A DNA stretch of 64,000 nucleotides from Candidatus Latescibacterota bacterium (GTDB lineage: Bacteria; Latescibacterota; UBA2968; UBA8231): assembly GCA_965204725.1 (NCBI GenBank), contig OZ242005.1:3040001-3104000 (forward strand), read 5' to 3'. Positions 27,530 to 39,740 of this stretch are shown here, in pieces. Below the pieces are notes generated by a model. The model saw nothing but the letters and a program-made list of their open reading frames with translations. It was not told where the DNA came from and did not search any database. The position numbers and the translations under genes are program-made. The number at the start of each line of letters is the position of its first letter. The first letter of the stretch is position 1.

Positions 27530-29662
27530 ATGCCCAATGCACGAACACCCATGAGGCGCGGTGCGTTGTTCCGCACTCGCCTGCTGCTGTCCGCAGGGCT
27601 TGTTGCCTTGGCGGCCTTGGTGCCCTGCTGCCAACCGGCCGCCCCGCCCGCTTCACCGCCCCCCCAATACACCGGCGATCTGCCGGTATTGCAGAAGCAC
27701 GGCAAGTTGCGGGTCATCGTTCCCGCAGCGTCGATTGCCCACATTCCCAAGGCGGCCGAACCGGTGACCATCGACTACGACCTCGCCGAGGGCTTGGCCG
27801 AGGCACTCAAGCTAGATCTGGTCTTGGTAAAGGCCGAAAGTTATGCCGAGATGGTCGAGAAACTCCTCGGCGGCGAAGGCGACGTCGTCGCGGCGAGCCT
27901 GACGATTACGCCAGCGCGGCAGGAGCAAGCGGCGTTTTCCGTGCCGTATCTCTATGTAGATGAATATCTGATTACCGCGGCCGGCGACAGCCTACCAGCG
28001 GCGATTGAGGATTTGGCCGGAATGACAATCGGCGTCCGGCGCTCCAGCTCGCACTACCAGACCCTGTTGGCTATTCAGCGCCAAGTGCCATCGTTGCGCC
28101 TACATGACGCACCGGAAAAGCTCGGCCTCGAACCCCTCGTCGAAGGGATCGTCCGCGGCGAATACACCGCAACGGTCGCCGACGGGCATGTGTGGCGGGC
28201 GGTGGCATGCTACTACGATAGCATGGTCACGCCCTTGGTGCTGGCCGAAAATCGCCCGATTGCCCTGATGATGCGGCCCGACGACGTGCAGCTCAAAACC
28301 CAGGTCGATGAATACCTACTCGCCCGGCATTTTACGCACCAGCCCCAACATGCCTTTACCGACGATTTGCCCGGCTTAAAAGAGCGGCGGCGGCTGCGCA
28401 TGATCACGCGCAACAACGCGATGACCTATTTCATCCATCGCGGCCGGCAGGTGGGCTTTGAATACGAGTTGATCAAGGAATTTGCCAACCGGCACGACCT
28501 GCGGCTCGATATCGTCATCCCGGAAAGCCACGCCGATCTGCTGGCGTATTTGAACGAAGGCAAGGGCGACGTGGTGGCCGCGGCCATGACCATCACAGAG
28601 GAGCGACGGGCGCAGGCGGCGTTTACCCGGCCTTATAACGAGGTAGAAGAGCTGGTGGTAGTGCGCGCAGCGGAGGATTCCGTGGCCAGCCTTGCGGATT
28701 TGGCCGGGCGCACGGTCCACGTGCGGCCCAGTTCTTCTTTTTACACGACCCTGATGGCCCTCGCCGATTCCATAACGGGTTTGCAGATCGCGCCCTTGCC
28801 CGACTCCCTCGAAACCGAGGACATCCTAGCCGGCGTTGAGGAAGGGCGATACGACATTACCCTATGCGACTCCAATTTGCTCGACGTGGAGCTCGCCTAC
28901 GGCCGTCAGCTCAAGGCGGCCTTTAGCATCAAGCCGACCTCTTTGGGATGGGCGGTGCGCGCGGACAATCCGGCCTTGCTGGCGGCGCTCAACCAGTACG
29001 TCCAAGCGGAAAAAGGGGGCTTGTTTTTTAACGTGATGAAGAAGCGGTACTTCAAAAACAAGCGCACCATCGCCCAAGCGAAGGATTCGCTGCGGGTCGA
29101 TTTGAGCGGCCGCCTGTCGCCTTATGACGAGTTGGTCAAAAAATACGCTCGCCAGTACGGCCAAGATTGGCGCTTGATTACCGCGCAGATGTACCAAGAA
29201 TCCAAATTCAATCCACAGGCCACGAGCTGGGTCGGCGCGCGCGGGCTGATGCAGATCATGCCGGGCACCGGGCGCGAGTTGGGATTTACCGATCTACACG
29301 ATCCCGAAGAGAATATCCACGCCGGGGTAAAATATATGGCTTGGCTGGTCGACCGCTTTGATCCGAAAATCCCCATAGATGAGCGGATGCGCTTTGCGTT
29401 GGCCGCCTACAATGTCGGGTACGGGCACGTGCTCGACGCCCGCCGCTTGGCCCGCGAAAATGGGTGGAATCCCGACCAGTGGTTTGGCCACGTGGAACAG
29501 GCGATGAAGCTGCTTGCCAAGCCGGCGTACTACAAACGGGCGCGCTACGGTTTCTGTCGCGGCGGCCAACCCGTGCATTACGTGAGCAATGTTCAGAGCT
29601 TCTACGACGCCTACGTCGGGGTGCTGACTATGGTCAGGGTCCCGGGCCGAGCGAGCCTCTGA
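27530..29662 (+). CDS. mltF: MltF-like lytic transglycosylase with two tandem substrate-binding (SBP_bac_3) domains
   Basis: Two 'GDVVAA(S/A)(L/M)TIT..R' SBP modules; SLT motifs QMYQES, GLMQIMP, AAYNVG. Start may be 27551. Confidence 0.85.
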   Translation: MPNARTPMRRGALFRTRLLLSAGLVALAALVPCCQPAAPPASPPPQYTGDLPVLQKHGKLRVIVPAASIAHIPKAAEPVTIDYDLAEGLAEALKLDLVLVKAESYAEMVEKLLGGEGDVVAASLTITPARQEQAAFSVPYLYVDEYLITAAGDSLPAAIEDLAGMTIGVRRSSSHYQTLLAIQRQVPSLRLHDAPEKLGLEPLVEGIVRGEYTATVADGHVWRAVACYYDSMVTPLVLAENRPIALMMRPDDVQLKTQVDEYLLARHFTHQPQHAFTDDLPGLKERRRLRMITRNNAMTYFIHRGRQVGFEYELIKEFANRHDLRLDIVIPESHADLLAYLNEGKGDVVAAAMTITEERRAQAAFTRPYNEVEELVVVRAAEDSVASLADLAGRTVHVRPSSSFYTTLMALADSITGLQIAPLPDSLETEDILAGVEEGRYDITLCDSNLLDVELAYGRQLKAAFSIKPTSLGWAVRADNPALLAALNQYVQAEKGGLFFNVMKKRYFKNKRTIAQAKDSLRVDLSGRLSPYDELVKKYARQYGQDWRLITAQMYQESKFNPQATSWVGARGLMQIMPGTGRELGFTDLHDPEENIHAGVKYMAWLVDRFDPKIPIDERMRFALAAYNVGYGHVLDARRLARENGWNPDQWFGHVEQAMKLLAKPAYYKRARYGFCRGGQPVHYVSNVQSFYDAYVGVLTMVRVPGRASL

Positions 29663-29695
29663 GCGAGCACACAGCTGAGGAGCATAGAAGGCGGG

Positions 29696-31759
29696 ATGGC
29701 CGAGCCTAAGCTGCGATTCCCGGCGCGGAAGTTGGCGGTGCTCAGGCCGGGTTATTTGGCGTTGCTGTTTGTGGTGCTGGCCTTGGTGTTGGGGGCGTTC
29801 GCGCTCTACGGCCTGCGGCAGTCGCAGCAATCGACCTTAGCGGTGCTAGAGCGCGGGGCGCGGTCGCTGGCCGAAGCGGTTTCTCGCGCTGAGGAAAACG
29901 TCCTCCGCGCCGAAGGCGACATGGAAGAGTTGGTTGAGGAGCGGCTGCTGGACAACGCCCGGCTGTTGGCCGAGTTGGGACCGGCGCCGGCGTTTTCCGA
30001 CACCTTGTTGGAGCGGCTCGCGGCCGACAACGCCCTCGACCAAGTCGATGTGTTCGACGCGGCCGGCCGGTTGGTCGCGTCGAGTGGCGTCGTTGATGCG
30101 GCCGCGCTGGCGGAATGGCGGCGCGCGCTCGCGCCGCTGCTGGCCGGCGCGGACGAGGCCCTGCTATTTGAGCTAGACGACCAGCTTTTTGCCGTGGCCG
30201 TGGCCGTGCGGGGCGGGGGTGCGGTGATCGTGCGGGCGGCGGCCGAGCGGATTCGCTCGGGGGCTGGTCGGCTGATTCAAGAGATCGGCGCCAACCCAGA
30301 CATTGTGTACATGGCGTTGCAAGACCGGCTGGGCCTGTTGGCCGCCTCGCACGATTTGGTCTTGCTCGAAAGCATTACCGGCGACGCATTTCTCGAGACC
30401 GCTCTAACGCGCAATGCGGTCGCCTCGCGCCTCGTCGAGTTTGAGGGCGAGGAGATCTTTGAGGTCGTCATTCCCTTCGCGCCCCAAGGGACGACGCTGG
30501 GGCTTTTGCGGATTGGCCTCTCGCTCGACGAGCTGCGGGCCCAGAAGCAGCGCGGTCGGCTGCAAGTGGCGTTGCTGGTGCTCCTGCTCCTGATATTGGG
30601 GGCCGTGGGCACCGGGGCGGTAATCGTGCGGCAAAACTTGGCCCTGCTCAGCGATGCGTACGCGAATATACAGACTTATAGCAGCCGCATCTTGGCGCAG
30701 ATGACGGACGCGGTGGTCGCCACAGATCCGGCTGGGGCCATTGAGGTCTTTAACCAAGCGGCCGAGGCCCTGTTCGGGGTTGAGGGCGCGCAGGTGCGGG
30801 GGCAGAACCTGCGAGAGGTATGGCCGCACGAGGCCGTGGACCGGGCCTTGGCCGGCGAAGAACTGGTGGGCTTGGCCTGTCGCTCGGCCGATGCTCGGGG
30901 CCGCGAGCGGGCCTTGTCGCTGTCGAGCGCACAGGTGTACAAGGCCAGCGGCGAGGTGGAGACCATCGTCTTGGTGATTCAAGATCTAAGCGAGAAGGTG
31001 GCCATGGAGGCCGATCTGCAGCGGCGCGACCGCTTGGCCTCTATGGGGGCACTGGCCTCGGGCGTGGCCCACGAAGTACGCAACCCCCTCAACGCCATCA
31101 GCGTAATCGTGCAGCGGCTGCGGCGCGAGTTCACGCCGCGCACCGACGAGGGCGAATACCGCCAGCTAACCCAAGTCGTCGCTGGCGAGGTCGAGCGGGT
31201 CAATCGCATCATCGAGCAGTTCCTAGCACTGACGCGCCCGCCCGCGCTTGCAAAGACGCGCGTCGATCTAGCGTCAATTTTGGCGCGAGCGGCCGAGACG
31301 GTTGAGCCGCAAATCCTCGCGGCCGGGCTGCGGCTGGAGCGGGATTTTGCCGGCGTGGGCGCGATCCAAGCCGATGCGGATCAGTTGCACCAAGCGTTGC
31401 TCAACTTGCTGGTCAACGCGCTGGAGGCCACGGACGAGGGGCACATCCGGCTAGCGGCTCAGTCGCGGCCGGCCGACTGGGTAGAGATCGAGGTGGCCGA
31501 TACCGGCTCGGGCATCCCGGCCGCCGATGCCGAGCGAATTTTCGACCTATATTTTACGACAAAGGCCGCCGGCACCGGGCTGGGTTTGAGCTTGGTTCAC
31601 CGCATCGTCTCAGAGCACGGGGGGCGCGTTGAAGTACAAAGCACCCCCGGCGCGGGGACGCGATTTGTCGTTCTATTGCCGAGGGGATTGGCCGAGGCTG
31701 GCGCGGCGGTTGAGGCCGGGCGAATGGCGGGTATATTACGGGGCGAACAAAATCAATAG
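29696..31759 (+). CDS. Membrane sensor histidine kinase with PAS domain (ZraS/AtoS-like)
   Basis: Two TM segments, PAS, H-box AHEVRNPLN, N-box NLLVNA, G1 DTGSGI, F-box FDLYFTTK, G2 GTGLGL. Confidence 0.93.
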   Translation: MAEPKLRFPARKLAVLRPGYLALLFVVLALVLGAFALYGLRQSQQSTLAVLERGARSLAEAVSRAEENVLRAEGDMEELVEERLLDNARLLAELGPAPAFSDTLLERLAADNALDQVDVFDAAGRLVASSGVVDAAALAEWRRALAPLLAGADEALLFELDDQLFAVAVAVRGGGAVIVRAAAERIRSGAGRLIQEIGANPDIVYMALQDRLGLLAASHDLVLLESITGDAFLETALTRNAVASRLVEFEGEEIFEVVIPFAPQGTTLGLLRIGLSLDELRAQKQRGRLQVALLVLLLLILGAVGTGAVIVRQNLALLSDAYANIQTYSSRILAQMTDAVVATDPAGAIEVFNQAAEALFGVEGAQVRGQNLREVWPHEAVDRALAGEELVGLACRSADARGRERALSLSSAQVYKASGEVETIVLVIQDLSEKVAMEADLQRRDRLASMGALASGVAHEVRNPLNAISVIVQRLRREFTPRTDEGEYRQLTQVVAGEVERVNRIIEQFLALTRPPALAKTRVDLASILARAAETVEPQILAAGLRLERDFAGVGAIQADADQLHQALLNLLVNALEATDEGHIRLAAQSRPADWVEIEVADTGSGIPAADAERIFDLYFTTKAAGTGLGLSLVHRIVSEHGGRVEVQSTPGAGTRFVVLLPRGLAEAGAAVEAGRMAGILRGEQNQ

Positions 31760-33443
31760 GCGATGGCAAGGGCTGCATGATCCGGCGCGTTACTATTAGG
31801 AAATTCAAGCGTTTTCGCGCACAGACGTGCGAGTTGGCCGAGTCCGTGGTGCTCGCCGGTCCCAACAATGCCGGAAAATCTACGCTGCTACAGGCGATTG
31901 CGACGTGGAAGCTCGGGCTCGACCGCTGGTTAGTTCAGCGCGAAGGAGGCCGAGCGGTCCGGCGGTCCGGCGTGGCGATAACCCGCGCCGATTTTACAGC
32001 CGTGCCGTTGCGCGAGATGAATCTATTGTGGGAGGGGCGGAAGGTCACCGGCCCGCGCGGTATGTCGGGGACGCGGCGGCTGATCGAGATCGTCGTGGAG
32101 GGCGGAACAGGCGAGGAGGAGTGGACGTGTGGGATCGAATTCCAGTACTCCAATCCCGAAGTGGTCCATGTGCGTCCGCTGCGGGCCAAAGATCTCGACC
32201 CGGCGGACATCCGGGCGTTCCCCCCTCCGGCGGCCCGGGCCCTCGACATCGTCCACGTCCCGCCGCTCGCCGGTATTGAGCGCGACGAGCCGCGGCGCGA
32301 CCGGGGGATGCAAGATCTGCTCGTGGGTCAGGGGCGTCCGGGCGAGATTTTGCGGAACCTGTTGTGGGAAATTTCCGAGAACAGCAAAGAGGACTGGCGG
32401 CAGCTCGCCGAACATATCCGCATACTCTTTCAAATCGAAGTGCTCGCGCCGTCGTATGCCCCGGCCCAACCGTACATCGTCTGCGAATACCGCGAGCCGG
32501 GCCGCGATAGGCCCCTCGATTTGTCCAACGCCGGTAGCGGTACGCTCCAAGTGCTCCTGTTGCTGGCCTTCCTCTACGCCCGCCCGGCGGCCGTAATTTT
32601 GCTCGACGAGCCGGACGCCCATCAGCACGTCATCTTGCAAAGGCAGGTGTACGACCTGATTCGCAAGGTGGCCCGCCAACGCGGCGGCCAAGTGCTCATC
32701 GCCACGCATTCCGAGGTCGTCCTCGACGCGACTGAGCCGACGCGGGTGCTCGGATTTTTTGGTGAATCGCCCCGTCCACTCGTCGATGAAGACCAGCGCA
32801 ACCAACTCCGCGAAGCCCTCAAGCGCCTGACCACCACGGATCTCCTATTGGGCCGCGAAGTCGGCGCGGTGCTTTATGTCGAGAGCGAGACCGACGAGCG
32901 GATTTTGGGCGAGTGGGCGCGCATGCTCGATCATCCGGCGCAGGGCTTTTTGAAGCGGCCGTTTGTGCGCTCGCTCGGCGGTCGCAGTCTGCGCGAAGCC
33001 CGGGCGCACTTCTTCGCCATGCAGGCCGCCTTTCCCGGGCTGCCGGGCCTGTGCCTGCTCGATGGCGACAACCGCGACGAGCCGGACGCGGAGCTGACCC
33101 GTACCGGCTTGGTCGTCTTGCGCTGGCGTCGCTACGAGATTGAGAACTACCTGTTGCAGCCCGAGGCGATCAAGCGGTTCGCCAACTTCCCCTTGGCAGA
33201 AGAGGCGTTTTGGCGCCAGGTCCCGCGCGGGACGGACCTATTTGGGGATCACGTCTCGCTGGTGCGCGTCAAGGCAAGCGACGAATTCCTCGTGCCACTG
33301 CTGGCCGAGATGGGCCGGCCCACACCCAAGCGAGACTTGTATCTGCTGGCCGCCCAGATGCGGCCCGACGAAATCCACCCCGAAGTAGTGGAAAAGCTAG
33401 ATAGGGTGGCAGCACTCGGCGCGGAGTAGCAGGCAACGCGATT
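31690..33443. mobile_element. Inserted single-gene cassette flanked by 9-bp direct repeat GAGGGGATT
   Basis: GAGGGGATT at 31681-31689 and 33444-33452; removal restores an overlapping HK-RR junction; no transposase or terminal inverted repeats seen. Confidence 0.65.
31777..33429 (+). CDS. OLD-like ABC-family ATPase with C-terminal TOPRIM-like nuclease domain (candidate defence protein)
   Basis: Walker A GPNNAGKS, signature LSNAGSG, Walker B LLDEPDAH, ATHS; TOPRIM-like LYVESETD, LLDGD, YEIENYL. Confidence 0.82.
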   Translation: MIRRVTIRKFKRFRAQTCELAESVVLAGPNNAGKSTLLQAIATWKLGLDRWLVQREGGRAVRRSGVAITRADFTAVPLREMNLLWEGRKVTGPRGMSGTRRLIEIVVEGGTGEEEWTCGIEFQYSNPEVVHVRPLRAKDLDPADIRAFPPPAARALDIVHVPPLAGIERDEPRRDRGMQDLLVGQGRPGEILRNLLWEISENSKEDWRQLAEHIRILFQIEVLAPSYAPAQPYIVCEYREPGRDRPLDLSNAGSGTLQVLLLLAFLYARPAAVILLDEPDAHQHVILQRQVYDLIRKVARQRGGQVLIATHSEVVLDATEPTRVLGFFGESPRPLVDEDQRNQLREALKRLTTTDLLLGREVGAVLYVESETDERILGEWARMLDHPAQGFLKRPFVRSLGGRSLREARAHFFAMQAAFPGLPGLCLLDGDNRDEPDAELTRTGLVVLRWRRYEIENYLLQPEAIKRFANFPLAEEAFWRQVPRGTDLFGDHVSLVRVKASDEFLVPLLAEMGRPTPKRDLYLLAAQMRPDEIHPEVVEKLDRVAALGAE

Positions 33444-33457
33444 GAGGGGATTTTGCA

Positions 33458-34804
33458 ATGGCTGGCGAGACCATTCTGATCATTGACGACGAGGCCGCGC
33501 AGCGCGAGGCCGTGGGCGGCTACCTGCGCAAACGGGGGTTTGCGGTCTTACAGGCCGCGAACGGGCGCGAGGGCTTGGCCCTATTGCAGGACCGGGTGAT
33601 TGACTTGATCATCACGGATTTGCGGATGCCAGAACTGGACGGGATGGGCGTACTCGCCGCGGCCCGTGCGATCAACCCCGCGATTGGGGTCGTCATGGCG
33701 ACGGCTTTTGGCACGGTGGATGGCGCGGTTGACGCCATGCAGGAAGGGGCCTTCTACTACCTGCAAAAGCCGATTGATCTCGACGTACTCGACCGGCTCG
33801 TCGATCGCGCCTTGGAGCAGCGGCACCGCATCTCGGAAAACGAACTCCTCCGCGAGCAGATCGGGGAGCGGGTGCCCTTTGGCGGTATCATGGGCTGCTC
33901 GCCAGCCATTGAAGAGGCCCTCAACGTGGTGGCGCGGGCCGCGCCGAGCCGGGCTACTGTGCTGTTGCACGGCGAGTCGGGCACCGGCAAGGAGCTGATG
34001 GCGCGCGCCGTACACGAGGCCAGCCCCCGAGCCGGCCGCCCCTTTGTGGCCGTCAACTGCGCCGCCCTCAACAAGGGCTTGATCGAAAGCGAGTTGTTCG
34101 GGCACGAGAAGGGGGCCTTTACCGGGGCGGATGCCCGGCGCACGGGCCGCTTTGAGCAGGCCGATGGCGGCACCTTGTTCCTCGACGAATTGGCCGAAAT
34201 CCCCCTCGATGTACAGGTCAAACTTTTGCGCGTCTTGCAGGAGCGCACAATCGAGCGGGTCGGCAGCGGCGTTGCGATCGCGGTGGATGTGCGGCTGATC
34301 GGGGCGACGAATCGAGACTTGGCGACGCTAGTCGCGCACGGGGCATTCCGCGAGGATTTGTTTTACCGGCTCAACGTCGTGGCGGTGGACCTGCCGCCGC
34401 TGCGGCAGCGCAAAGGCGACATTCCCCTGCTCGTCAACCACTTTCTCGCCCGCTATGCCGCAGAAAACGATAAGGCCGTCGGCGAGATCTCCAAAGAGGC
34501 GTTGGAACTGCTGACGCGCTATGCCTACCCCGGCAATGTGCGCGAGCTGCAAAACATCGTCGAGCGTGCGGTGGTCATGGCCCGGGGCGCGGTGGTGACG
34601 TGCGCGGACTTGCCCGCTGAAGTGCAAGAAGCCGCGCCGGCGCCCGTTGCGGACACCTTGCCCGCGCAAGTGGAGGAATTGGAAAAGAAGGCCATTGCCC
34701 AAGCCTTGGAGCGGGCTGGCGGCGTCCAGAGCCGAGCGGCCGAGTTGCTGGGGCTGACCGAGCGCAACCTGCGCTACAAGCTCAAGAAGTACGGGCTGAA
34801 ATAG
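33458..34804 (+). CDS. Sigma54-dependent response regulator (NtrC/ZraR/AtoC family)
   Basis: Receiver IDDE...TDLRMP; GESGTGKE, GAFTGA, FLDE, YPGNVREL; Fis-type HTH. Confidence 0.95.
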   Translation: MAGETILIIDDEAAQREAVGGYLRKRGFAVLQAANGREGLALLQDRVIDLIITDLRMPELDGMGVLAAARAINPAIGVVMATAFGTVDGAVDAMQEGAFYYLQKPIDLDVLDRLVDRALEQRHRISENELLREQIGERVPFGGIMGCSPAIEEALNVVARAAPSRATVLLHGESGTGKELMARAVHEASPRAGRPFVAVNCAALNKGLIESELFGHEKGAFTGADARRTGRFEQADGGTLFLDELAEIPLDVQVKLLRVLQERTIERVGSGVAIAVDVRLIGATNRDLATLVAHGAFREDLFYRLNVVAVDLPPLRQRKGDIPLLVNHFLARYAAENDKAVGEISKEALELLTRYAYPGNVRELQNIVERAVVMARGAVVTCADLPAEVQEAAPAPVADTLPAQVEELEKKAIAQALERAGGVQSRAAELLGLTERNLRYKLKKYGLK

Positions 34805-34805
34805 C

Positions 34806-35945
34806 TCAAAAGCCGAACTGGATGCCCGCAGAGTACGCATGGGCGTCTGCGCTGTAGAACGCATCGTTGGACGCCACGGTGCGGTAGAGCCACTCCAATT
34901 CGAGGGCCATGGCGCGGAACGGGGTGCGGTCTAGGTACAAGGTGCGCCCGAGCCCCAAGCGCGCGGTGTGGCGCGTTTCCGCCGTGGATTTCCCCGTGAC
35001 AACGCCGGCGAGGTCGTAGGCTGGCCGCTGGTGGTAGAGGCGGCTTTCTCGCTGGACGGAGGCGGCGAGCTCGCAGTTTAAGGGCACCAAGTACTTCAGG
35101 GTCGCACTCCACTGATCCCCCCCATAGCTGTAGCGGTCTTCAAAGAGTTCGTCTGGGTCGTACCAGTGGGTCTTGAATGGGGCCTTAGCCTCGTAGAGTT
35201 CCCATTGGGCCTTAGCAAAGAGTTCGTCTGGGTCGTACCAGAATCTATCGGCCTTGCGGCTCTGGCCGGCGAGGATGCCTTGGTGATGCCACGCTAGCTG
35301 CAACCCGAGGTTGGGGCCGAGGGATTGGGCGGCCTTGAGGCGGGTGCCCCATAAGAGCGGGTTGCGGCTGAGCTGAGCGAGTTCCTGCCGATAGGACTTA
35401 AGGCCCAATTCGCCGTTTAACTGCAAGGTGGTGCGGCTGGGCAGGTAGTGGCTTAGCTGCGCGTCGAGGCGCTGTTCGAGGTAGTTGTAAGCGGCGGCGT
35501 TGAGAAAGTTTTGGTAGCTGAGTGTGTAGTCGAAGCGGCAGATCAGCTCCGAGTGTAGATACGGCTCCAAGCTGGCGAAGGCTCGGCCGGCGGCAAAGTC
35601 GCGGTAGTCGTAGAGCGGGCGGTCCAAGCGCAGGCTCAGGGCCGCGCCGGCAAAGAACAGCCCGGCCGCGCCCAAGGAGTGGGCATAGCTCGCGCCCAAG
35701 CGGTGGACGTGATTGAAAAGGTCGGCGTTTTCCCTGAATACGTTGGCGTTGCCCGAGTAGTACCAGCTCAAGTCCTCGCCGAGCTGGTAGTCGAAGTCGA
35801 TATAGGCCGACTGGATCAGGTCGCTGCGCGGGCGGGCGGTGAGAAAAACGTTGTCCGTATAGGTAGTGTACAGGTCGGCGTTGAGTTCGACTTGGGCCTC
35901 GGCGGCCGAAATCAGCGCGATTAGACAGACGAGTAGATGTCTCAT
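34806..35945 (-). CDS. Putative outer-membrane beta-barrel protein
   Basis: Signal peptide AEA-Q; 'YTDNVF', alternating aromatic strands, C-terminal AGIQFGF; overlaps the upstream gene stop. Confidence 0.75.
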   Translation of the reverse strand: MRHLLVCLIALISAAEAQVELNADLYTTYTDNVFLTARPRSDLIQSAYIDFDYQLGEDLSWYYSGNANVFRENADLFNHVHRLGASYAHSLGAAGLFFAGAALSLRLDRPLYDYRDFAAGRAFASLEPYLHSELICRFDYTLSYQNFLNAAAYNYLEQRLDAQLSHYLPSRTTLQLNGELGLKSYRQELAQLSRNPLLWGTRLKAAQSLGPNLGLQLAWHHQGILAGQSRKADRFWYDPDELFAKAQWELYEAKAPFKTHWYDPDELFEDRYSYGGDQWSATLKYLVPLNCELAASVQRESRLYHQRPAYDLAGVVTGKSTAETRHTARLGLGRTLYLDRTPFRAMALELEWLYRTVASNDAFYSADAHAYSAGIQFGF

Positions 35946-36634
35946 TTGCCCTCCTTCTTCTTGTGCTTCTTGGGATCGTCTTTTTTGAGATGCAGGGGTA
36001 CGCGGCGTTTGAGGCGTTTGGGGGCGAGGTCGCGGACGCGCTCGTCTGGGTGCCGCAAGAGGCGGCGCAACAGGCGGGCGTCGTCAATGCCGTCGCCGTC
36101 CTCGTCCAAGAAGAAATCCATCCGCCGTTTTAGCGCGTGTAGCCGCTGGTGCAGCCGCTTGAGCGGGTCGTGCATGCCGTCGCCATCGGCGTCGCGGAAT
36201 TGCTTGACTTGGTGCCGGCGCTCTTCAAAGACGCGGCCAAAGCGATAGCCCAACAGCCCGTGCGGGCCGTACTCTGCGCCGGTTATATCGTTTGTGCGGT
36301 CACCATTGAAATCGACGACGTTGTCGATGAAGCCGTCGTCGTCTGCGTCGCGGAAGCGCCCGTCGAGGTCGTTTACGCCGTCTCCGTCTGCGTCGCGGAA
36401 GCGGTCGTTTACGCCGTCGTCGTCTGCGTCTAAAAAGGGGAAGTGGTGGGGATAGGGCTGGCCGTTGAGGTCGTTTACGCCGTCTCCGTCTGCGTCGCGG
36501 AAGCGGTCGTTTACGCCGTCGCGGTCGGCATCGACATAGCCGACAACGGGCGCGGGAGACGCGCCTTCCGGCCCGGATTGGGCGCGTGCGGAACAGGCTA
36601 GCAGGGCACTGGCCACGATGGCGATGACGACCAT
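35942..36634 (-). CDS. Secreted protein with eight DxDxDG-type calcium-binding repeats and basic C-terminus
   Basis: Signal peptide ARA-Q; DADRDGVND, DADGDGVND x2, DADDDGVND, DADDDGFID, DFNGDRTND, DADGDGMHD, DEDGDGIDD. Confidence 0.8.
   Translation of the reverse strand: MVVIAIVASALLACSARAQSGPEGASPAPVVGYVDADRDGVNDRFRDADGDGVNDLNGQPYPHHFPFLDADDDGVNDRFRDADGDGVNDLDGRFRDADDDGFIDNVVDFNGDRTNDITGAEYGPHGLLGYRFGRVFEERRHQVKQFRDADGDGMHDPLKRLHQRLHALKRRMDFFLDEDGDGIDDARLLRRLLRHPDERVRDLAPKRLKRRVPLHLKKDDPKKHKKKEGK
36345..36540. repeat. Intragenic repeats encoding RFRDADxDGVND units
   Basis: Near-identical GTCGTTTACGCCGTC...GTCTGCGTCGCGGAAGCG blocks recur several times. Confidence 0.85.
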
Positions 36635-36705
36635 GGTTTCCTCGATATGCTCGCAAGCAACAGCCAACGCCCGGAAGCGCCCGAGCGCTGGCTATTGCTT
36701 TGTCG

Positions 36706-37548
36706 TTACTGGCCGAAGGAGTTCTTGACGCGACCCCAGCTCGTCTGCTCGACCGCTGTGGCTTTGCCCGCAGCCGCTGTCTTGGTCGTCTCGGCCGCTT
36801 CTTGGCTGCCGCGATCGGTCTTGATTTGTTCGAGCGTTGCGAGTTGATCGGCGGTCAGAATGGCCTCAAAGCCGGTCCAGTACTGGTCGCGGAGGGCTTG
36901 CTTCTGCTCGCGTAGGTCCTCTTTGAGCACTTGGACTTGCTCGGCTTGGTCTTCGCTCAGGCCGAGCGGGTTCTCGATGGCCGCGAGGGTTTCGCGCTGC
37001 TCGTCAGTTAGGATGGCTTCAAAGCTGGTGCGGAACTCTTCCTTGGTCAGGTCCTGCTCCTTGAGAGCTTGGATCTGCTCCTTCTGGTCTGCGCTCAGGC
37101 CGAGGTCGGGTCGGTTGGGCCGATTGGCCCTGCGGTGTTCGAGGGCCTCGCGCTGCTCATCGGTTAGGATGGCCGCAAAACTGGTGCGGTACTCTGCTTT
37201 GGTCAGGTCCTGCTCCTTGAGAGCTCGGATTTGCTCGGCTTGGTCTTCGCTCAAGCCGAGCGGGTTCTCGATGGCCGCGAGGGTTTCGCGCTGCTCGTCG
37301 GTTAGGATGGCCGCAAAATCGGTGCGGTACTGGTCGCCGAGAGCCTGCCGTTGCGCCCGTAGGTCCTCTTTGAGGGTTTGGACCTGCGCGAGCTGGTCTT
37401 CGCTCAAGCCGAGTTGCTCGATCCACGAGCCTCGGTGCTCGCGGTGCTTGCCGTGCTTGCCTTTGGCACCCCAGCCTTTTGCCGAGGTGTCCATGGCCGC
37501 CGTGGCGACCAAAATCAGCGCGGCTGCGATGCCCCATGTTGCCTTCAT
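36706..37548 (-). CDS. Periplasmic Spy/CpxP/ZraP-like protein with four LTxxQ repeat units and C-terminal TAVEQTSWGRVK tail
   Basis: Signal peptide; four 'LGLS(E/A)DQ...AILT(D/A)(E/D)Q' units; AGGAGG RBS before ATG 37548. Confidence 0.8.
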   Translation of the reverse strand: MKATWGIAAALILVATAAMDTSAKGWGAKGKHGKHREHRGSWIEQLGLSEDQLAQVQTLKEDLRAQRQALGDQYRTDFAAILTDEQRETLAAIENPLGLSEDQAEQIRALKEQDLTKAEYRTSFAAILTDEQREALEHRRANRPNRPDLGLSADQKEQIQALKEQDLTKEEFRTSFEAILTDEQRETLAAIENPLGLSEDQAEQVQVLKEDLREQKQALRDQYWTGFEAILTADQLATLEQIKTDRGSQEAAETTKTAAAGKATAVEQTSWGRVKNSFGQ

Positions 37549-37613
37549 GATGCTCCTCCTTGCATGAGATAAGTGTAATGCCCAACGCGCATTGTTGGGT
37601 CGCACTGTGTTAA

Positions 37614-37629
37614 AGCAATATCTGTGCCA
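37614..37629 (-). promoter_or_regulatory. Sigma54 (-24/-12) promoter of the Spy-like operon
   Basis: Minus strand TGGCAC-AGATA-TTGCT, full consensus, about 65 nt upstream of the ATG. Confidence 0.9.
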
Positions 37630-37716
37630 CAAGAGAGCATTTTTCTGCAAAATGTCGCTTTACCAGTGGGCGAGCGCCTTGCGCCGTTGCCAAAACACGG
37701 CCGGCCCGCTTGGGTG

Positions 37717-37824
37717 AATTCGACCAGATGGTCGAAAGAGATCGTTCTTAAAATGACGTAACATTATGTTTTTATGTAACCTGTAATCCTTTCGACCAAG
37801 GCCAAAAATTCGACCAGATGGTCG
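37717..37824. promoter_or_regulatory. Paired palindromic sites, candidate upstream activator sequences
   Basis: AATTCGACCAGATGGTCG at 37717-37734 and 37807-37824 (90-bp period); half-site TTCGACCA at 37791-37798. Confidence 0.6.
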
Positions 37825-37869
37825 CGGGTAAAACGGCGCGGGTGCGCGGATGCAGGCTCAAGCCGTAAT

Positions 37870-39252
37870 CTACCCCCGTCCAAACACCCGCGCCGGCAGA
37901 TACGTAGCCAACTCCGGCACGAACCACAGCCCCACCAACAGCAGCACCTGAATCGCGATAAAGGGCACGACCCCCCTATAGATCTGCGGCGTACTGATCT
38001 CTGGGGGGGCGACGCCGCGCAAGTAAAAGAGCGAGAAGCCAAACGGAGGCGTCAGAAAAGAGGTCTGCAAATTTAGGGCGATCATCACGCCCAACCACAC
38101 TGGATCCAAGCCCATCGCCAAGAGGACCGGGCCGACGATGGGGACGACGACGAAAATTATTTCAAAGAAGTCGAGAAAGAAGCCGAGCAAAAACATCACG
38201 GCCATCACCAGCGCGAAGGAGCCGAGTACGCCGCCGGTCGCCTCATGAGTCAGAAAGCGCTCGACGGCTTCGTCGCCCCCGTAGCCGCGAAAGACCAGCG
38301 AAAACACGCTCGCACCAATGAGGATGATAAAGACCATGGCGTTGATCTCGGTGGTGGTGCGCATGGCTTCTTTGAGGGCGTCGCGGTTGAAGTGCCCCTT
38401 GGCCATTGCCAAGAGCATGGCACCCACCGCGCCGACCGAAGCGGCCTCGGTCGGCGTGGCCACCCCGAAGAGGATGGAGCCGAGCACCCCGCCGATGAGG
38501 ACGAGGGGCGGCACGAGGGCCGCGCCGAGGCGGGCGAGGAAGGCCGCGCTGAAGGGCTCGCGCTCCTCGGCCGGCACGGAGGCTGGCTTGAGGAGGCCGA
38601 GGCCGATTATATAGAGGATATAGAGACTCATCAGCACGAGACCGGGCAAGAGCGCGCCCATAAAGAGGTCGCCGACCGACACGGAGACCGGGGCGAAATT
38701 GCCCATTTTGAGCTGGGCCTGCTGATGAGCCGAGGAGACGACATCGCCGAGGATGACGAGCACAATACTGGGCGGGATGATCTGGCCGAGCGTCCCCGAG
38801 GCGCAGATGATGCCGGTGGCAACCGCTGGGGAGTACGCACGCTTGAGCATGGCCGGCAGCGAAATGAGCCCCATGGTGACGACCGTCGCGCCGACGATGC
38901 CAGTGGAGGCCGCCAACAACCCCCCGACGAGGCACACCGAAATCCCCAGCCCCCCGCACAAGCGGCCGCAGAGTTGCGCCATGGTTTCGAGCAGGTTCTC
39001 GGCAATTTTTGAGCGTTCCAGCACGACTCCCATAAAAACGAAGAGCGGCACGGCCATCAGGGTCTCGTTGGCCATGATGCCGTAGATGCGGGCCGGCAAA
39101 GCCGAGAGAAAGGCCGCGTCAAAGTGGCCGGTGAGGACGCCGAGGCCGGCAAAGCCGAGGGCCGTACCCGCGAGGCAAAAGGCCACCGGGAAGCCGGATA
39201 GCAGCACCGCGAAGGTGCAGAAAACCATGGCCAGCGGCGCGAGTTCGCTCAT
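37870..39252 (-). CDS. dctM: TRAP transporter large permease
   Basis: 'GFPVAFCL', 'AVPLFVFMG', 'SGTLGQIIPPS', 'ATPTEAA', 'SFLTPPFG'. Confidence 0.93.
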   Translation of the reverse strand: MSELAPLAMVFCTFAVLLSGFPVAFCLAGTALGFAGLGVLTGHFDAAFLSALPARIYGIMANETLMAVPLFVFMGVVLERSKIAENLLETMAQLCGRLCGGLGISVCLVGGLLAASTGIVGATVVTMGLISLPAMLKRAYSPAVATGIICASGTLGQIIPPSIVLVILGDVVSSAHQQAQLKMGNFAPVSVSVGDLFMGALLPGLVLMSLYILYIIGLGLLKPASVPAEEREPFSAAFLARLGAALVPPLVLIGGVLGSILFGVATPTEAASVGAVGAMLLAMAKGHFNRDALKEAMRTTTEINAMVFIILIGASVFSLVFRGYGGDEAVERFLTHEATGGVLGSFALVMAVMFLLGFFLDFFEIIFVVVPIVGPVLLAMGLDPVWLGVMIALNLQTSFLTPPFGFSLFYLRGVAPPEISTPQIYRGVVPFIAIQVLLLVGLWFVPELATYLPARVFGRG

Positions 39253-39740
39253 GGGGCGCGGAGGGTTTGGACGCTGTGGTACGCGATGGCTAGGGCTTGC
39301 AAAAACAGCAGCAAGAAGCACAGGGGAATGGCGGTTTTGAGCAGATAGACCGCCTCCAAGCCGCCGCCGTCTTGGGACCCTTCGAGCACGGCCCAAGAGT
39401 CGGCGACAAAGGGCAGCGACTGGTAGAACAGCACCGAGCAGCAGGGGATCAGCAGCAGCAAGCTGCCCAAGAGGTTGACCAGTGCCTTGCGCCGGACGCC
39501 CAAGGGCCGGTAGAGAATATCGACGCGGACGTGCTCGTCGCGGGCGAGGGTGTAGCCGGCCGCGAGGAGGAAGGTAAAGGCGTGCATGTACAGGGCTATT
39601 TCCTGCATCCAGACCCAGCCGCGACCAAAGAGGTAGCGCAAGACCACGATGACAAAAGTCACCAAGACCATGCCCAGCGTCAGCCAAGGCACTGTGTGGG
39701 CGATGAAGCGGTTGAGGCGTTCCATGCGGGCGTTAGCCAA
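39249..39740 (-). CDS. dctQ: TRAP transporter small permease
   Basis: Four TMs, 'VVLRYLF', 'EHVRVDILY'. Start may be ATG 39725. Confidence 0.9.
   Translation of the reverse strand: MANARMERLNRFIAHTVPWLTLGMVLVTFVIVVLRYLFGRGWVWMQEIALYMHAFTFLLAAGYTLARDEHVRVDILYRPLGVRRKALVNLLGSLLLLIPCCSVLFYQSLPFVADSWAVLEGSQDGGGLEAVYLLKTAIPLCFLLLFLQALAIAYHSVQTLRAP

Follow-up and report, generated by a model that had tools for sequence, protein, structure and literature searches.

A stretch of 64,000 nucleotides from a Candidatus Latescibacterota bacterium (assembly GCA_965204725.1, contig OZ242005.1, positions 3,040,001 to 3,104,000; hereafter the window, G000:C1:3040001-3104000) carries a single gene for a 550-amino-acid (aa) protein of the OLD family between the sensor histidine kinase gene and the response regulator gene of a two-component operon. 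Here G000 denotes the genome that holds the window, other G-labels denote congeneric genomes, and L-labels denote loci. Taken as a whole, the best explanation, and in our judgment a probable one, is that a cassette was inserted into the operon with a duplication of at least 66 bp of its target, that it encodes an OLD-family effector, and, more tentatively, that it arrived by a route free of recombinases. A preliminary description of the locus had noticed a 9-bp direct repeat around the gene and read it as the mark of an insertion. That observation is confirmed and its interpretation is supported, with corrections to the length of the duplication, the point of insertion, the supposed overlap of the neighboring genes, and the origin of the kinase tail. 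The protein is a divergent member of the known OLD kind; the manner of its insertion is unusual and unexplained.

The three genes lie on the forward strand, as do all the features of the locus described below, and their open reading frames (ORFs) are as the preliminary description gave them. The kinase (29696-31759, 687 aa, PAS-HisKA-HATPase_c) is AtoS/ZraS-like and the regulator (33458-34804, 448 aa, intact) is a sigma-54-dependent protein of the NtrC/AtoC type, both according to Pfam and NCBIfam. The OLD-family gene (31777-33429) was assigned from Pfam matches (AAA_21/AAA_15), an AlphaFold2 model, fold matches, conserved residues, and the ratio of nonsynonymous to synonymous substitution rates (dN/dS). 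It is contained in an inserted cassette of 1728 bp (31708-33435), which is composed of a promoter-like site, a 39-nt leader, the ATPase ORF, and about 6 nt past its stop codon. On either side lie a left copy (31658-31707) and a right copy (33436-33471) of the target duplication, which were delimited by gapped local alignment of the flanks against 300 shuffles and by a multiple alignment of both junctions in G000, G019, and G003 together with six empty sites.

Target duplication at the kinase-regulator junction

Within the 64-kb window, the only exact occurrences of the 9-bp sequence GAGGGGATT are at 31681-31689 and 33444-33452. The second occurrence is the working Shine-Dalgarno region of the regulator, whose ATG at 33458 lies 5 nt past it, and the first corresponds to the regulator Shine-Dalgarno region in the empty sites of relatives. 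Taken alone, the repeat is weak evidence of insertion: two or more matches were found in 6 of 100 shuffles of the window, and chance direct repeats of 10 to 20 nt are common (22 families within 2.1 kb around the ATPase gene). It is the relatives that give it meaning. Read without them, the locus could be explained by an ATPase native to the operon, with the repeat as a chance purine-rich match and with other genomes having deleted the gene; the insignificance of the 9-mer alone would agree with this, as would a locus so prone to deletion that 14 of the 25 genomes bearing the upstream SLT gene lack the two-component block. The comparisons below make this explanation hardly credible.

A search of the kinase protein against 31 genomes of the genus gave a full-length match in 13. 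The site is empty in 11 congeners (G022, G045, G011, G020, G007, G018, G015, G017, G016, G009, and G024), where the kinase gene is followed directly by the regulator gene with one copy of the repeat. The empty junction reads …CCGAGGGGATTTTGA[A/G]ATGGCT…, or in longer form …CTGCCGAGGGGATTTTGA[A/G]ATGGCTGGAGAGACC…, and includes GAGGGGA as the Shine-Dalgarno sequence of the regulator. The preliminary description had reconstructed such a junction by removing the cassette and one repeat copy, and its reconstruction agrees with the 11 congeners but for one base (TGA versus TGC). It had also supposed that the two genes overlap, and here the empty sites differ: the kinase ends in …LLPRGF* at the equivalent of 31690-31692, and its TGA stop codon lies 1 nt ahead of the regulator ATG. 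Orthologous operons as distant as 68-75% kinase identity (G018, G015, G017, G016, and G024) are all empty too, which argues that the ATPase gene is a derived insertion and not a native member of the operon. The same is indicated by the flank repeat of G019, which includes a decayed second regulator start codon upstream of the cassette, and by the nearest relatives of the gene, whose contexts differ and whose records name other phyla in their titles. Two outcomes that the preliminary description had set against itself, an empty junction unlike its reconstruction and an ATPase kept at this place across distant taxa, were looked for and neither was seen.

The runs in which this stretch is present include sponge metagenomes. 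Logan contigs covering 29000-35500 had the occupied form in all four runs compared, which come from four studies; among the contigs listed, both junctions were bridged in three of the four runs and run X5 had the left junction and the right repeat. The excised form had no match among the 15 joints listed of 47, in contigs that drop rare variants and are uninformative on excision. In the empty junction of G007 the bases that separate the Shine-Dalgarno sequence from the ATG are GCTTAAC, compared to TTTTGA[A/G] in the other empty sites; 5 of 7 bases are changed relative to the consensus and the kinase stop codon is TAA. This altered junction may be the scar of a cassette loss.

Two congeners, G019 and G003, have ATPase orthologues at the same place with 91.7% and 91.3% aa identity to the window protein. 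The insertion nucleotide is identical in the three genomes (…GGAGAGA[C/T]|GGTTGA…), the cassette start GGTTGA standing directly 3' of …ATGGCTGGAGAGA[C/T], 14 nt into the regulator gene and within its codon 5. The empty sites confirm an insertion at the kinase-regulator junction, as first proposed, but place it in codon 5 of the regulator rather than at the ribosome-binding site.

Alignment of the flanks indicates that far more than 9 bp was duplicated. The score of the flank repeat was reached by 2 of 300 shuffles in G000 (31658-31703 versus 33436-33467) and by none of 300 in G019 (65 bp spanned on the left side and 48 bp on the right side) or in G003 (23 bp). The left flank of G019 keeps the kinase end with its TGA, followed by the second regulator start, which has decayed from ATG to AGG; the right flank opens with a second kinase 3' end (…GCCCGACGCGGGGACGCAATT) with 15 bp deleted, and continues with the ribosome-binding site and the intact regulator. 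In the left copy of G000 the kinase 3' end is intact, and the part corresponding to the stop codon, spacer, and regulator start (31690-31707) has decayed. A 1-nt deletion has removed the kinase stop codon, so that the frame reads on to the TAG at 31757-31759 and adds 23 residues to the kinase. This read-through tail makes up the last 23 kinase residues (the HATPase_c domain spans residues 560-663); its first six or so residues stem from the decayed left copy and the remainder from the promoter and leader of the cassette, so the earlier view of a cassette-derived tail holds for most of its length. The right copy of G000 consists of what is left of the kinase 3' end after a 15-bp deletion, followed by the ribosome-binding site, a spacer in which TGA has become TGC, and the first 14 nt of the regulator gene. 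Both the 15-bp deletion and the change of TGA to TGC are derived features common to G000 and G019, which makes their insertions one event. Judged from these alignments, the original event duplicated at least 66 bp, comprising the kinase 3' end, its stop codon, the ribosome-binding site, and the first 14 nt of the regulator gene, and the 9-bp repeat is the best-preserved core of this longer duplication in G000. The duplication claimed earlier is real, then, and its length was underestimated. By the duplication the kinase and the regulator are both kept intact, in line with the earlier statement that neither neighbor is broken and that the mechanism is not evident from the cassette.

The cassette itself is simple, as had been described. 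The ATPase gene is its only gene; no second ORF with a family match and no transposase or integrase was found in it, and none of 19 inverted-repeat pairs has its arms at both ends of the insert. The promoter-like site reported earlier, TTGAGG-16-TATATT at 31710-31737, is the sole sigma-70-like site in a scan of 29400-35200 (5.8 kb), which found no terminator-like site between the ATPase and the regulator. In G000, G019, G003, and a further copy in G007, the TTGA of the -35 element and TATATTACGGGG (TATATT(ACGGGG)) are kept, and the last two -35 bases and the spacer vary. When promoter and leader were sought as a repeated element in G000, the sole full match was the locus itself. The left end GGTTGA is common to the same four copies, and the right end is defined by the start of the right duplication copy. 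The G007 copy lies at a second locus, is frameshifted, and has 87% nucleotide identity to G000, with homology over 31708-33416; the left end is therefore common to two different junctions. This end also reads GTTGAAG, which prompted the thought of an integron, and about 6 nt separate the end of the ORF from the right boundary, which leaves little room for an attC site.

At that second locus (L088 4250-8070) the cassette copy lies within a tandem array of minus-strand genes of 74-92 aa, each encoding a coiled coil and a C-terminal hydrophobic helix with weak XhlA/DUF7310 matches, in surroundings rich in short sequence families that are repeated many times in genomes across the genus. A remnant of the kinase-regulator junction was suspected by eye beside this copy (GATTTTAAGATGG) and was discarded, as 120 of 500 shuffles scored as high or higher. 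The long direct repeats around it were likewise rejected as an insertion duplication; they are paralogous small genes of the array.

History of the locus in the genus

In trees of the kinase, regulator, and SLT gene, the occupied genomes fall into three positions and do not form one clade. G000 groups with G046, which retains the ATPase gene at this locus; G019 is the sister of the empty G007 (SH-aLRT support 97 in the regulator tree and 82 in the SLT tree); and G003 lies among the empty G045, G020, G022, and G011. This scatter tells against a single insertion unless several clean losses or lateral spread are added to it.

Lateral spread would mean that the occupied allele moved between lineages by homologous recombination of its flanks, perhaps aided by homing-like cutting of empty alleles by the encoded nuclease. 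It would account directly for the three separate places in the tree. Free-standing homing endonuclease genes have their own promoter and are located between conserved genes, and the cassette likewise has its own promoter and sits between conserved genes. However, the flanks next to the cassette in G003 are of the type of its own clade (AGAGTGATCGC in the kinase 3' end, GATAA in the regulator), that is, without a co-converted tract from a donor. Furthermore, the nucleotide identities of the cassette match those of the regulator, as vertical descent predicts: 87.7% versus 88.9% for G000 and G003, 90.4% versus 90.8% for G019 and G003, and 90.7% versus 89.9% for G000 and G019. In addition, PMC10568477 characterizes the OLD nucleases that have been studied as non-specific or nicking enzymes. 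Lateral spread is accordingly rated a small chance. The equal identities together with the own-clade flanks of G003 favor one old insertion, which would have been followed by several clean losses through the direct repeats.

Among the genomes that keep the ATPase gene, the operon around it has fared unevenly. G019 retains an intact ATPase even though residues 1-591 of its kinase are missing and the match to the regulator ends at residue 276. In G046, which has lost the kinase, the regulator, and the counterparts of the genes at 34806-37650, an intact ATPase gene (95% protein identity) has the SLT gene as its immediate upstream neighbor and the TRAP transporter gene as its immediate downstream neighbor.

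The whole block at 29663-37869, which holds the kinase, the ATPase, the regulator, and three minus-strand genes at 34806-37650, is variably present. In the 14 of 25 SLT-bearing congeners mentioned above, the SLT gene (27530-29662) is followed directly by the DctM transporter gene (37870-39687); these 14 genomes are scattered over the SLT tree, and in one of them, G005, only fragments of DctM were matched. G044 retains only kinase residues 1-88. The first two of the minus-strand ORFs downstream of the regulator, at 34806-35945 (379 aa) and 35942-36667 (241 aa), have no Pfam match, and the next (36706-37650) has an LTXXQ motif.

Two of the occupied loci have acquired additional DNA right after the ATPase gene. 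The insert of G003 (L003 3154-3900) is about 745 bp long with a GC content of 46%, compared to 62% in the window, and contains a 154-aa minus-strand ORF without a Pfam match. That of G046 (L032 7654-8410) is 757 bp long with 50% GC and contains two small ORFs, one of them for a coiled coil of the DUF7201 type that has a hydrophobic tail. No similarity was found between the two inserts (best E 0.24), nor between the small coiled-coil proteins encoded near the copies of G046 and G007 (E 1.1).

Route of insertion across the family

Duplications of comparable length were sought around other members of the family by comparing the 300 nt upstream with the 300 nt downstream of the ORF at 128 loci. 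A threshold score of 40 was reached at 4 of the 128 loci and at 11 of 2439 control positions, which were taken from these loci with equal spacing (Fisher p = 0.005, for loci and positions that are not independent of each other). The preliminary description had suggested that the flanks of homologues be examined for short direct repeats; what this uncovered is a few long ones, of 40-215 bp, with none at most loci. The first of the four is the locus of G019 (L033), with the repeat at the kinase-regulator junction described above. At the second, L106, a repeat of 215 bp that is 93% identical holds the 3' end of an upstream 809-aa gene, and the cassette starts at the stop codon of that gene. At L160 the repeat is about 65 bp, and in its left copy the first 23 or so codons of the downstream gene recur in decayed form, overlapping the upstream stop codon in GTGA. 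At L052 it is 40 nt, 20 of them exact, and holds the GxGxxG start of a downstream FAD monooxygenase. Below the threshold, at L067 (score 33), the ATPase gene is flanked on either side by a decayed DUF499 N-terminus. The cassettes of independent loci have no terminal sequence in common and are close to the size of the ORF.

The identity of two of these target genes was pursued further. A methyltransferase was considered for the downstream gene of L160 and was not borne out: Pfam had no match, and those of NCBIfam were weak, of restriction-endonuclease type, and far below cut-off. For L106, the 809-aa gene had been read as HerA-like from a Walker-B-like motif, a reading for which there was nothing in Pfam or NCBIfam. 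In G010 (L029 8522-8606), and also in G014 and G004, a remnant of a DUF499 start, ATGGACCTTGGTATAAAG…, stands after the ATPase gene and ahead of an AAA_21+DUF4276 gene pair; a 12-nt exact match suggests that this pair, too, may have entered a few codons into DUF499 with a like duplication.

The insert resembles both integrase insertions into gene ends and transposon insertions in that direct repeats of the target flank it and the target genes stay intact. It differs from both in having no transposase, integrase, or terminal inverted repeats, and no termini common to different insertions. Transposase target duplications are usually 2-15 bp, and a transposon or insertion sequence is a poor description of a unit that has one ORF, no terminal inverted-repeat pair, and a duplication of at least 66 bp here and of 40-215 bp elsewhere. 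An integrative element deserves closer attention. The cassette might be a cut-down element or a satellite mobilized in trans by a tyrosine or serine recombinase, which would have integrated a circle with a copy of the kinase-regulator junction in its attachment site, the flank repeats being attL and attR. Slightly differing direct repeats that hold the end of a target gene are the classic mark of integrase insertion into gene ends; three tyrosine recombinases (Phage_integrase matches) are encoded elsewhere in G000; and the low-GC DNA right after the ATPase gene in G003 and G046 is like the accretion seen at insertion hot spots. However, none of the three recombinase matches lies within the window coordinates, and none was found among the ORFs scanned in related loci. 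The long repeats at the other family loci involve unrelated targets (the 809-aa gene at its 3' end, a restriction-like gene and the FAD monooxygenase at their 5' ends), and with repeat lengths varying from 40 to 215 bp a different attachment site would be needed each time. Moreover, the additional DNA of G003 has taken the place of part of the right repeat and does not lie between two intact repeats. Such an element therefore seems improbable to us, with a slim chance of being the answer.

Several observations weigh against the proposed route of insertion. About 97% of the family loci have no flank repeat, and the median flank score, 18-19, is close to that of cross-locus pairings of upstream and downstream flanks (18) and of the same-spacing controls (20). 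The excess of long duplications is further limited by control positions that are not independent and by a comparison made within this one gene family. The literature matches listed included none relevant to long target duplications around single defense genes.

With these reservations, the following course of events is proposed. As the comparison with relatives shows, a 1.7-kb cassette inserted 14 nt into the regulator gene of an AtoS/AtoC-like operon, in an ancestor of several species. Through the target duplication of at least 66 bp, the left copy completes the kinase gene and the right copy supplies the ribosome-binding site and start of the regulator. The non-functional halves of both copies have since decayed in G000, leaving the 9-bp repeat and the 23-residue kinase tail. 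Since no recombinase and no defined ends are visible, and since the duplications are long and variable, the route pointed to is a staggered break with fill-in or a replicative template switch, a suggestion that is put forward tentatively. At the left junction there is a match of 3-4 nt (AGA[C/T]) between the target and the flank of the G007 type, a single case that would fit microhomology. Ku (PF02735) was not found in G000, a genome 94% complete, and this argues against capture by classical end joining. Selection would keep only those events whose duplication rebuilds the ends of the neighboring genes, and the direct repeats might later permit clean loss by recombination between them.

A more far-reaching form of this proposal is that the unit is a self-sufficient mobile defense gene, which enters without a recombinase, frequently a few codons inside the next gene of an operon, while copying 40-215 bp of its target to either side, rebuilds its neighbors, and can later be removed cleanly. 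In its boldest versions, the ATPase-gated TOPRIM nickase of the protein would itself make the staggered nicks, or the unit would travel as a copy of its transcript. We consider this form very unlikely.

The OLD-family protein and its probable role

An alignment of 76 representatives of the family (28-66% identity) was used to model the protein with AlphaFold2 (mean pLDDT, the per-residue confidence score, 93.3). The predicted layout is an ABC ATPase head at about residues 1-351 followed by a TOPRIM-fold domain at about residues 360-550. Pfam assigns the head to AAA_21 (E 1.5e-22) and AAA_15, and residues 1-351 match PtuA and SMC heads with Z scores of 20-21. With the full model, Foldseek placed the Thermus scotoductus (Ts) OLD protein 6p74 first (E 2.8e-12), followed by PtuA and GajA. 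In a search with the family profile, 6p74 was again the best match (E 1.3e-17), and AriA was weaker (E 4e-8). The best PADLOC matches were AriA (E 2e-23), NsnB, AriAB (E 1.9e-19), and MADS3 ATPases. Thus, the identification of an OLD-like ATPase-TOPRIM protein in the preliminary description is supported by fold, through structure models of both the full protein and its C-terminal domain.

The C-terminal residues 335-550 were folded alone (pLDDT 89.6) and compared with 48,161 chains, only 7 of which reached a Z score of 5 or more. AriB (8v46_D; Z 10.2, 176 residues aligned, root-mean-square deviation (rmsd) 4.0) and the C-terminal region of Burkholderia (Bp) OLD (6nk8_B; Z 10.2, 168 aligned, rmsd 3.9) headed the list. 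They were followed by the hypothetical protein PH0156 (2p62_B; Z 8.2, 163 aligned, rmsd 4.2), Ts OLD (Z 7.4, 131 aligned, rmsd 3.6), GajA (Z 7.2, 141 aligned, rmsd 3.6), chains of retrons Eco2 and Eco8 (both Z 6.2; 166 and 168 aligned, rmsd 5.2 and 4.5), and in rank 8 a small Toprim protein (Z 5.0, 93 aligned, rmsd 3.4). The best Foldseek match for this domain was Bp OLD (E 8e-3). Among the 76 sequences K34 and H311 are invariant, D277/E278 are conserved at 90% or more, and G255 and Q258 are invariant within a conserved SxGxxQ signature-like motif; in the C-terminal part, the acidic residues E369, D373, and D429 and the stretch E454-I-E456-N-Y458 are conserved. The model also has three helices (176-184, 188-202, and 204-218) between ATPase strands, which may or may not correspond to the helical dimerization domain inserted in the ATPase of OLD proteins.

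Compared to known systems, the protein is closest in plan to Class 1 OLD proteins such as P2 Old, Ts OLD, Vibrio cholerae OLD, and E. coli YbjD. First, it is likewise a single gene of about 550 aa without a helicase, retron, or nuclease partner; its neighbors in the window are the histidine kinase and the response regulator, and its neighbors in G046 and at the second G007 locus are others. Second, it combines an N-terminal ABC ATPase with a C-terminal TOPRIM fold, and its K34, E278, and H311 correspond to the catalytic K34, E276, and H310 of Ts OLD (PMC7049728). Third, it differs in having only about 15% identity to Ts OLD, in a C-terminal domain covered by no Pfam or PADLOC model, and in a conserved SxGxxQ, where that source describes the ABC signature of Class 1 proteins as degenerate. 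A location away from other defense genes, which PMC10568477 attributes to Class 1, is true of the window but not of 19 of 80 relatives.

The likeness to PARIS, also called Class 4 OLD, rests on AriA and AriAB as top PADLOC matches and on AriB as a joint best C-terminal fold. However, PARIS comprises two proteins, the ATPase AriA and the DUF4435-type TOPRIM protein AriB, and a single 550-aa chain is found here. The PADLOC matches cover mainly residues 238-344, with residues 251-344 as the best stretch for the fused AriAB. The protein is filed as a divergent OLD-family predicted nuclease, Class 1-like as a single gene, with a TOPRIM domain that on the models appears equally near to AriB and OLD. 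The ATPase head may sense or gate, and the TOPRIM domain may cut DNA or tRNA.

Relatives of the gene are widespread. More than 120 clusters of the family were found at 71-95% identity, and tblastn confirmed 110 family loci in genomes and at least 503 in metagenomes. From these searches, 80 family loci at 58-95% identity were collected from species-representative genomes, with record titles naming Latescibacterota, Acidobacteria-type orders, Chloroflexota, Gemmatimonadota, Alpha- and Gammaproteobacteria, Binatia, Rhodothermales, and others. DUF1156 and/or DUF499 genes flank 19 of the 80 loci, and the slot between them often also holds AAA_21+DUF4276 or AAA_21/DUF3696+PIN pairs. DUF1156 methyltransferases and DUF499 are components of "Type-1 BREX-related" systems, and TOPRIM-linked OLD-ABC modules are described as backup effectors embedded in BREX-related loci in at least 1242 taxa (both from PMC12839542). 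These modules are like the relatives in the 19 loci and like the copies of four congeners (G004, G013, G014, and G010), which have 74.6-75.3% aa identity and lie between DUF1156 and DUF499 genes; the window copy differs in lying outside such a system, in a two-component operon and with its own promoter. The copies of the four congeners and the second locus of G007 indicate that the ATPase gene probably moves between loci. Two more members of the family are present in G000 outside the window (G000:C1:938115-939530 and G000:C1:1859094-1860680, both on the minus strand, with 41% and 37% identity), and many congeners, as well as a second genus of the class, have similar ATPase paralogues.

All six pairs formed by the four copies at this locus have a dN/dS of 0.10-0.14, and the ATPase gene is under purifying selection. 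Together with the persistence of an intact ATPase in G019 and G046, this supports a selected accessory function, most plausibly defense. From family membership, gene context, and selection, the protein is most likely a stand-alone anti-phage or anti-mobile-element effector.

Some points count against this assignment. The surroundings in the window are housekeeping genes (an alcohol dehydrogenase, a solute-binding/SLT protein, the two-component system, and a TRAP transporter) and not a defense island. The TOPRIM assignment rests on a predicted fold with middling Z scores: for the C-terminal 187 residues, Pfam gave only DUF6628 at E 0.039 and no DUF4435, and a profile search of the C-terminal domain against the PDB gave no matches at E up to 10. 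The archaeal OLD-family ATPase Cran1 is reported to act in cell-cycle progression and not in defense (PMC12796447). For E. coli YbjD, the Toprim domain is reported to be dispensable for its phenotypes (PMC13261556). On such grounds the protein might be an OLD-family ATPase with a housekeeping or regulatory task, or its gene might be a selfish one of the addiction type that is toxic to lose. However, its presence is variable within the genus, and relatives at 58-80% identity occur in metagenome-assembled genomes labeled with many different phyla, a pattern typical of accessory defense genes. The embedding of 19 of the 80 loci in BREX-related loci, beside AAA_21+DUF4276 and AAA_21+PIN pairs, and the best PADLOC matches (AriA, NsnB, AriAB, and MADS3 ATPases) point in the same direction. 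A role other than defense is thus considered unlikely, with a modest chance of being correct.

Collectively, the empty, occupied, and decayed loci of the genus form a natural series in which a defense-type gene has been placed in a working operon without harm to its neighbors, and in which the ATPase gene can outlive its operon. The recurring long duplications hint at a route of insertion beyond known transposases and integrases. If this route were general, it would help to explain why small defense genes are found within BREX-like and restriction operons. The members of the family form an uncharacterized, strongly conserved group of OLD-type predicted nucleases and a reasonable candidate for functional testing.

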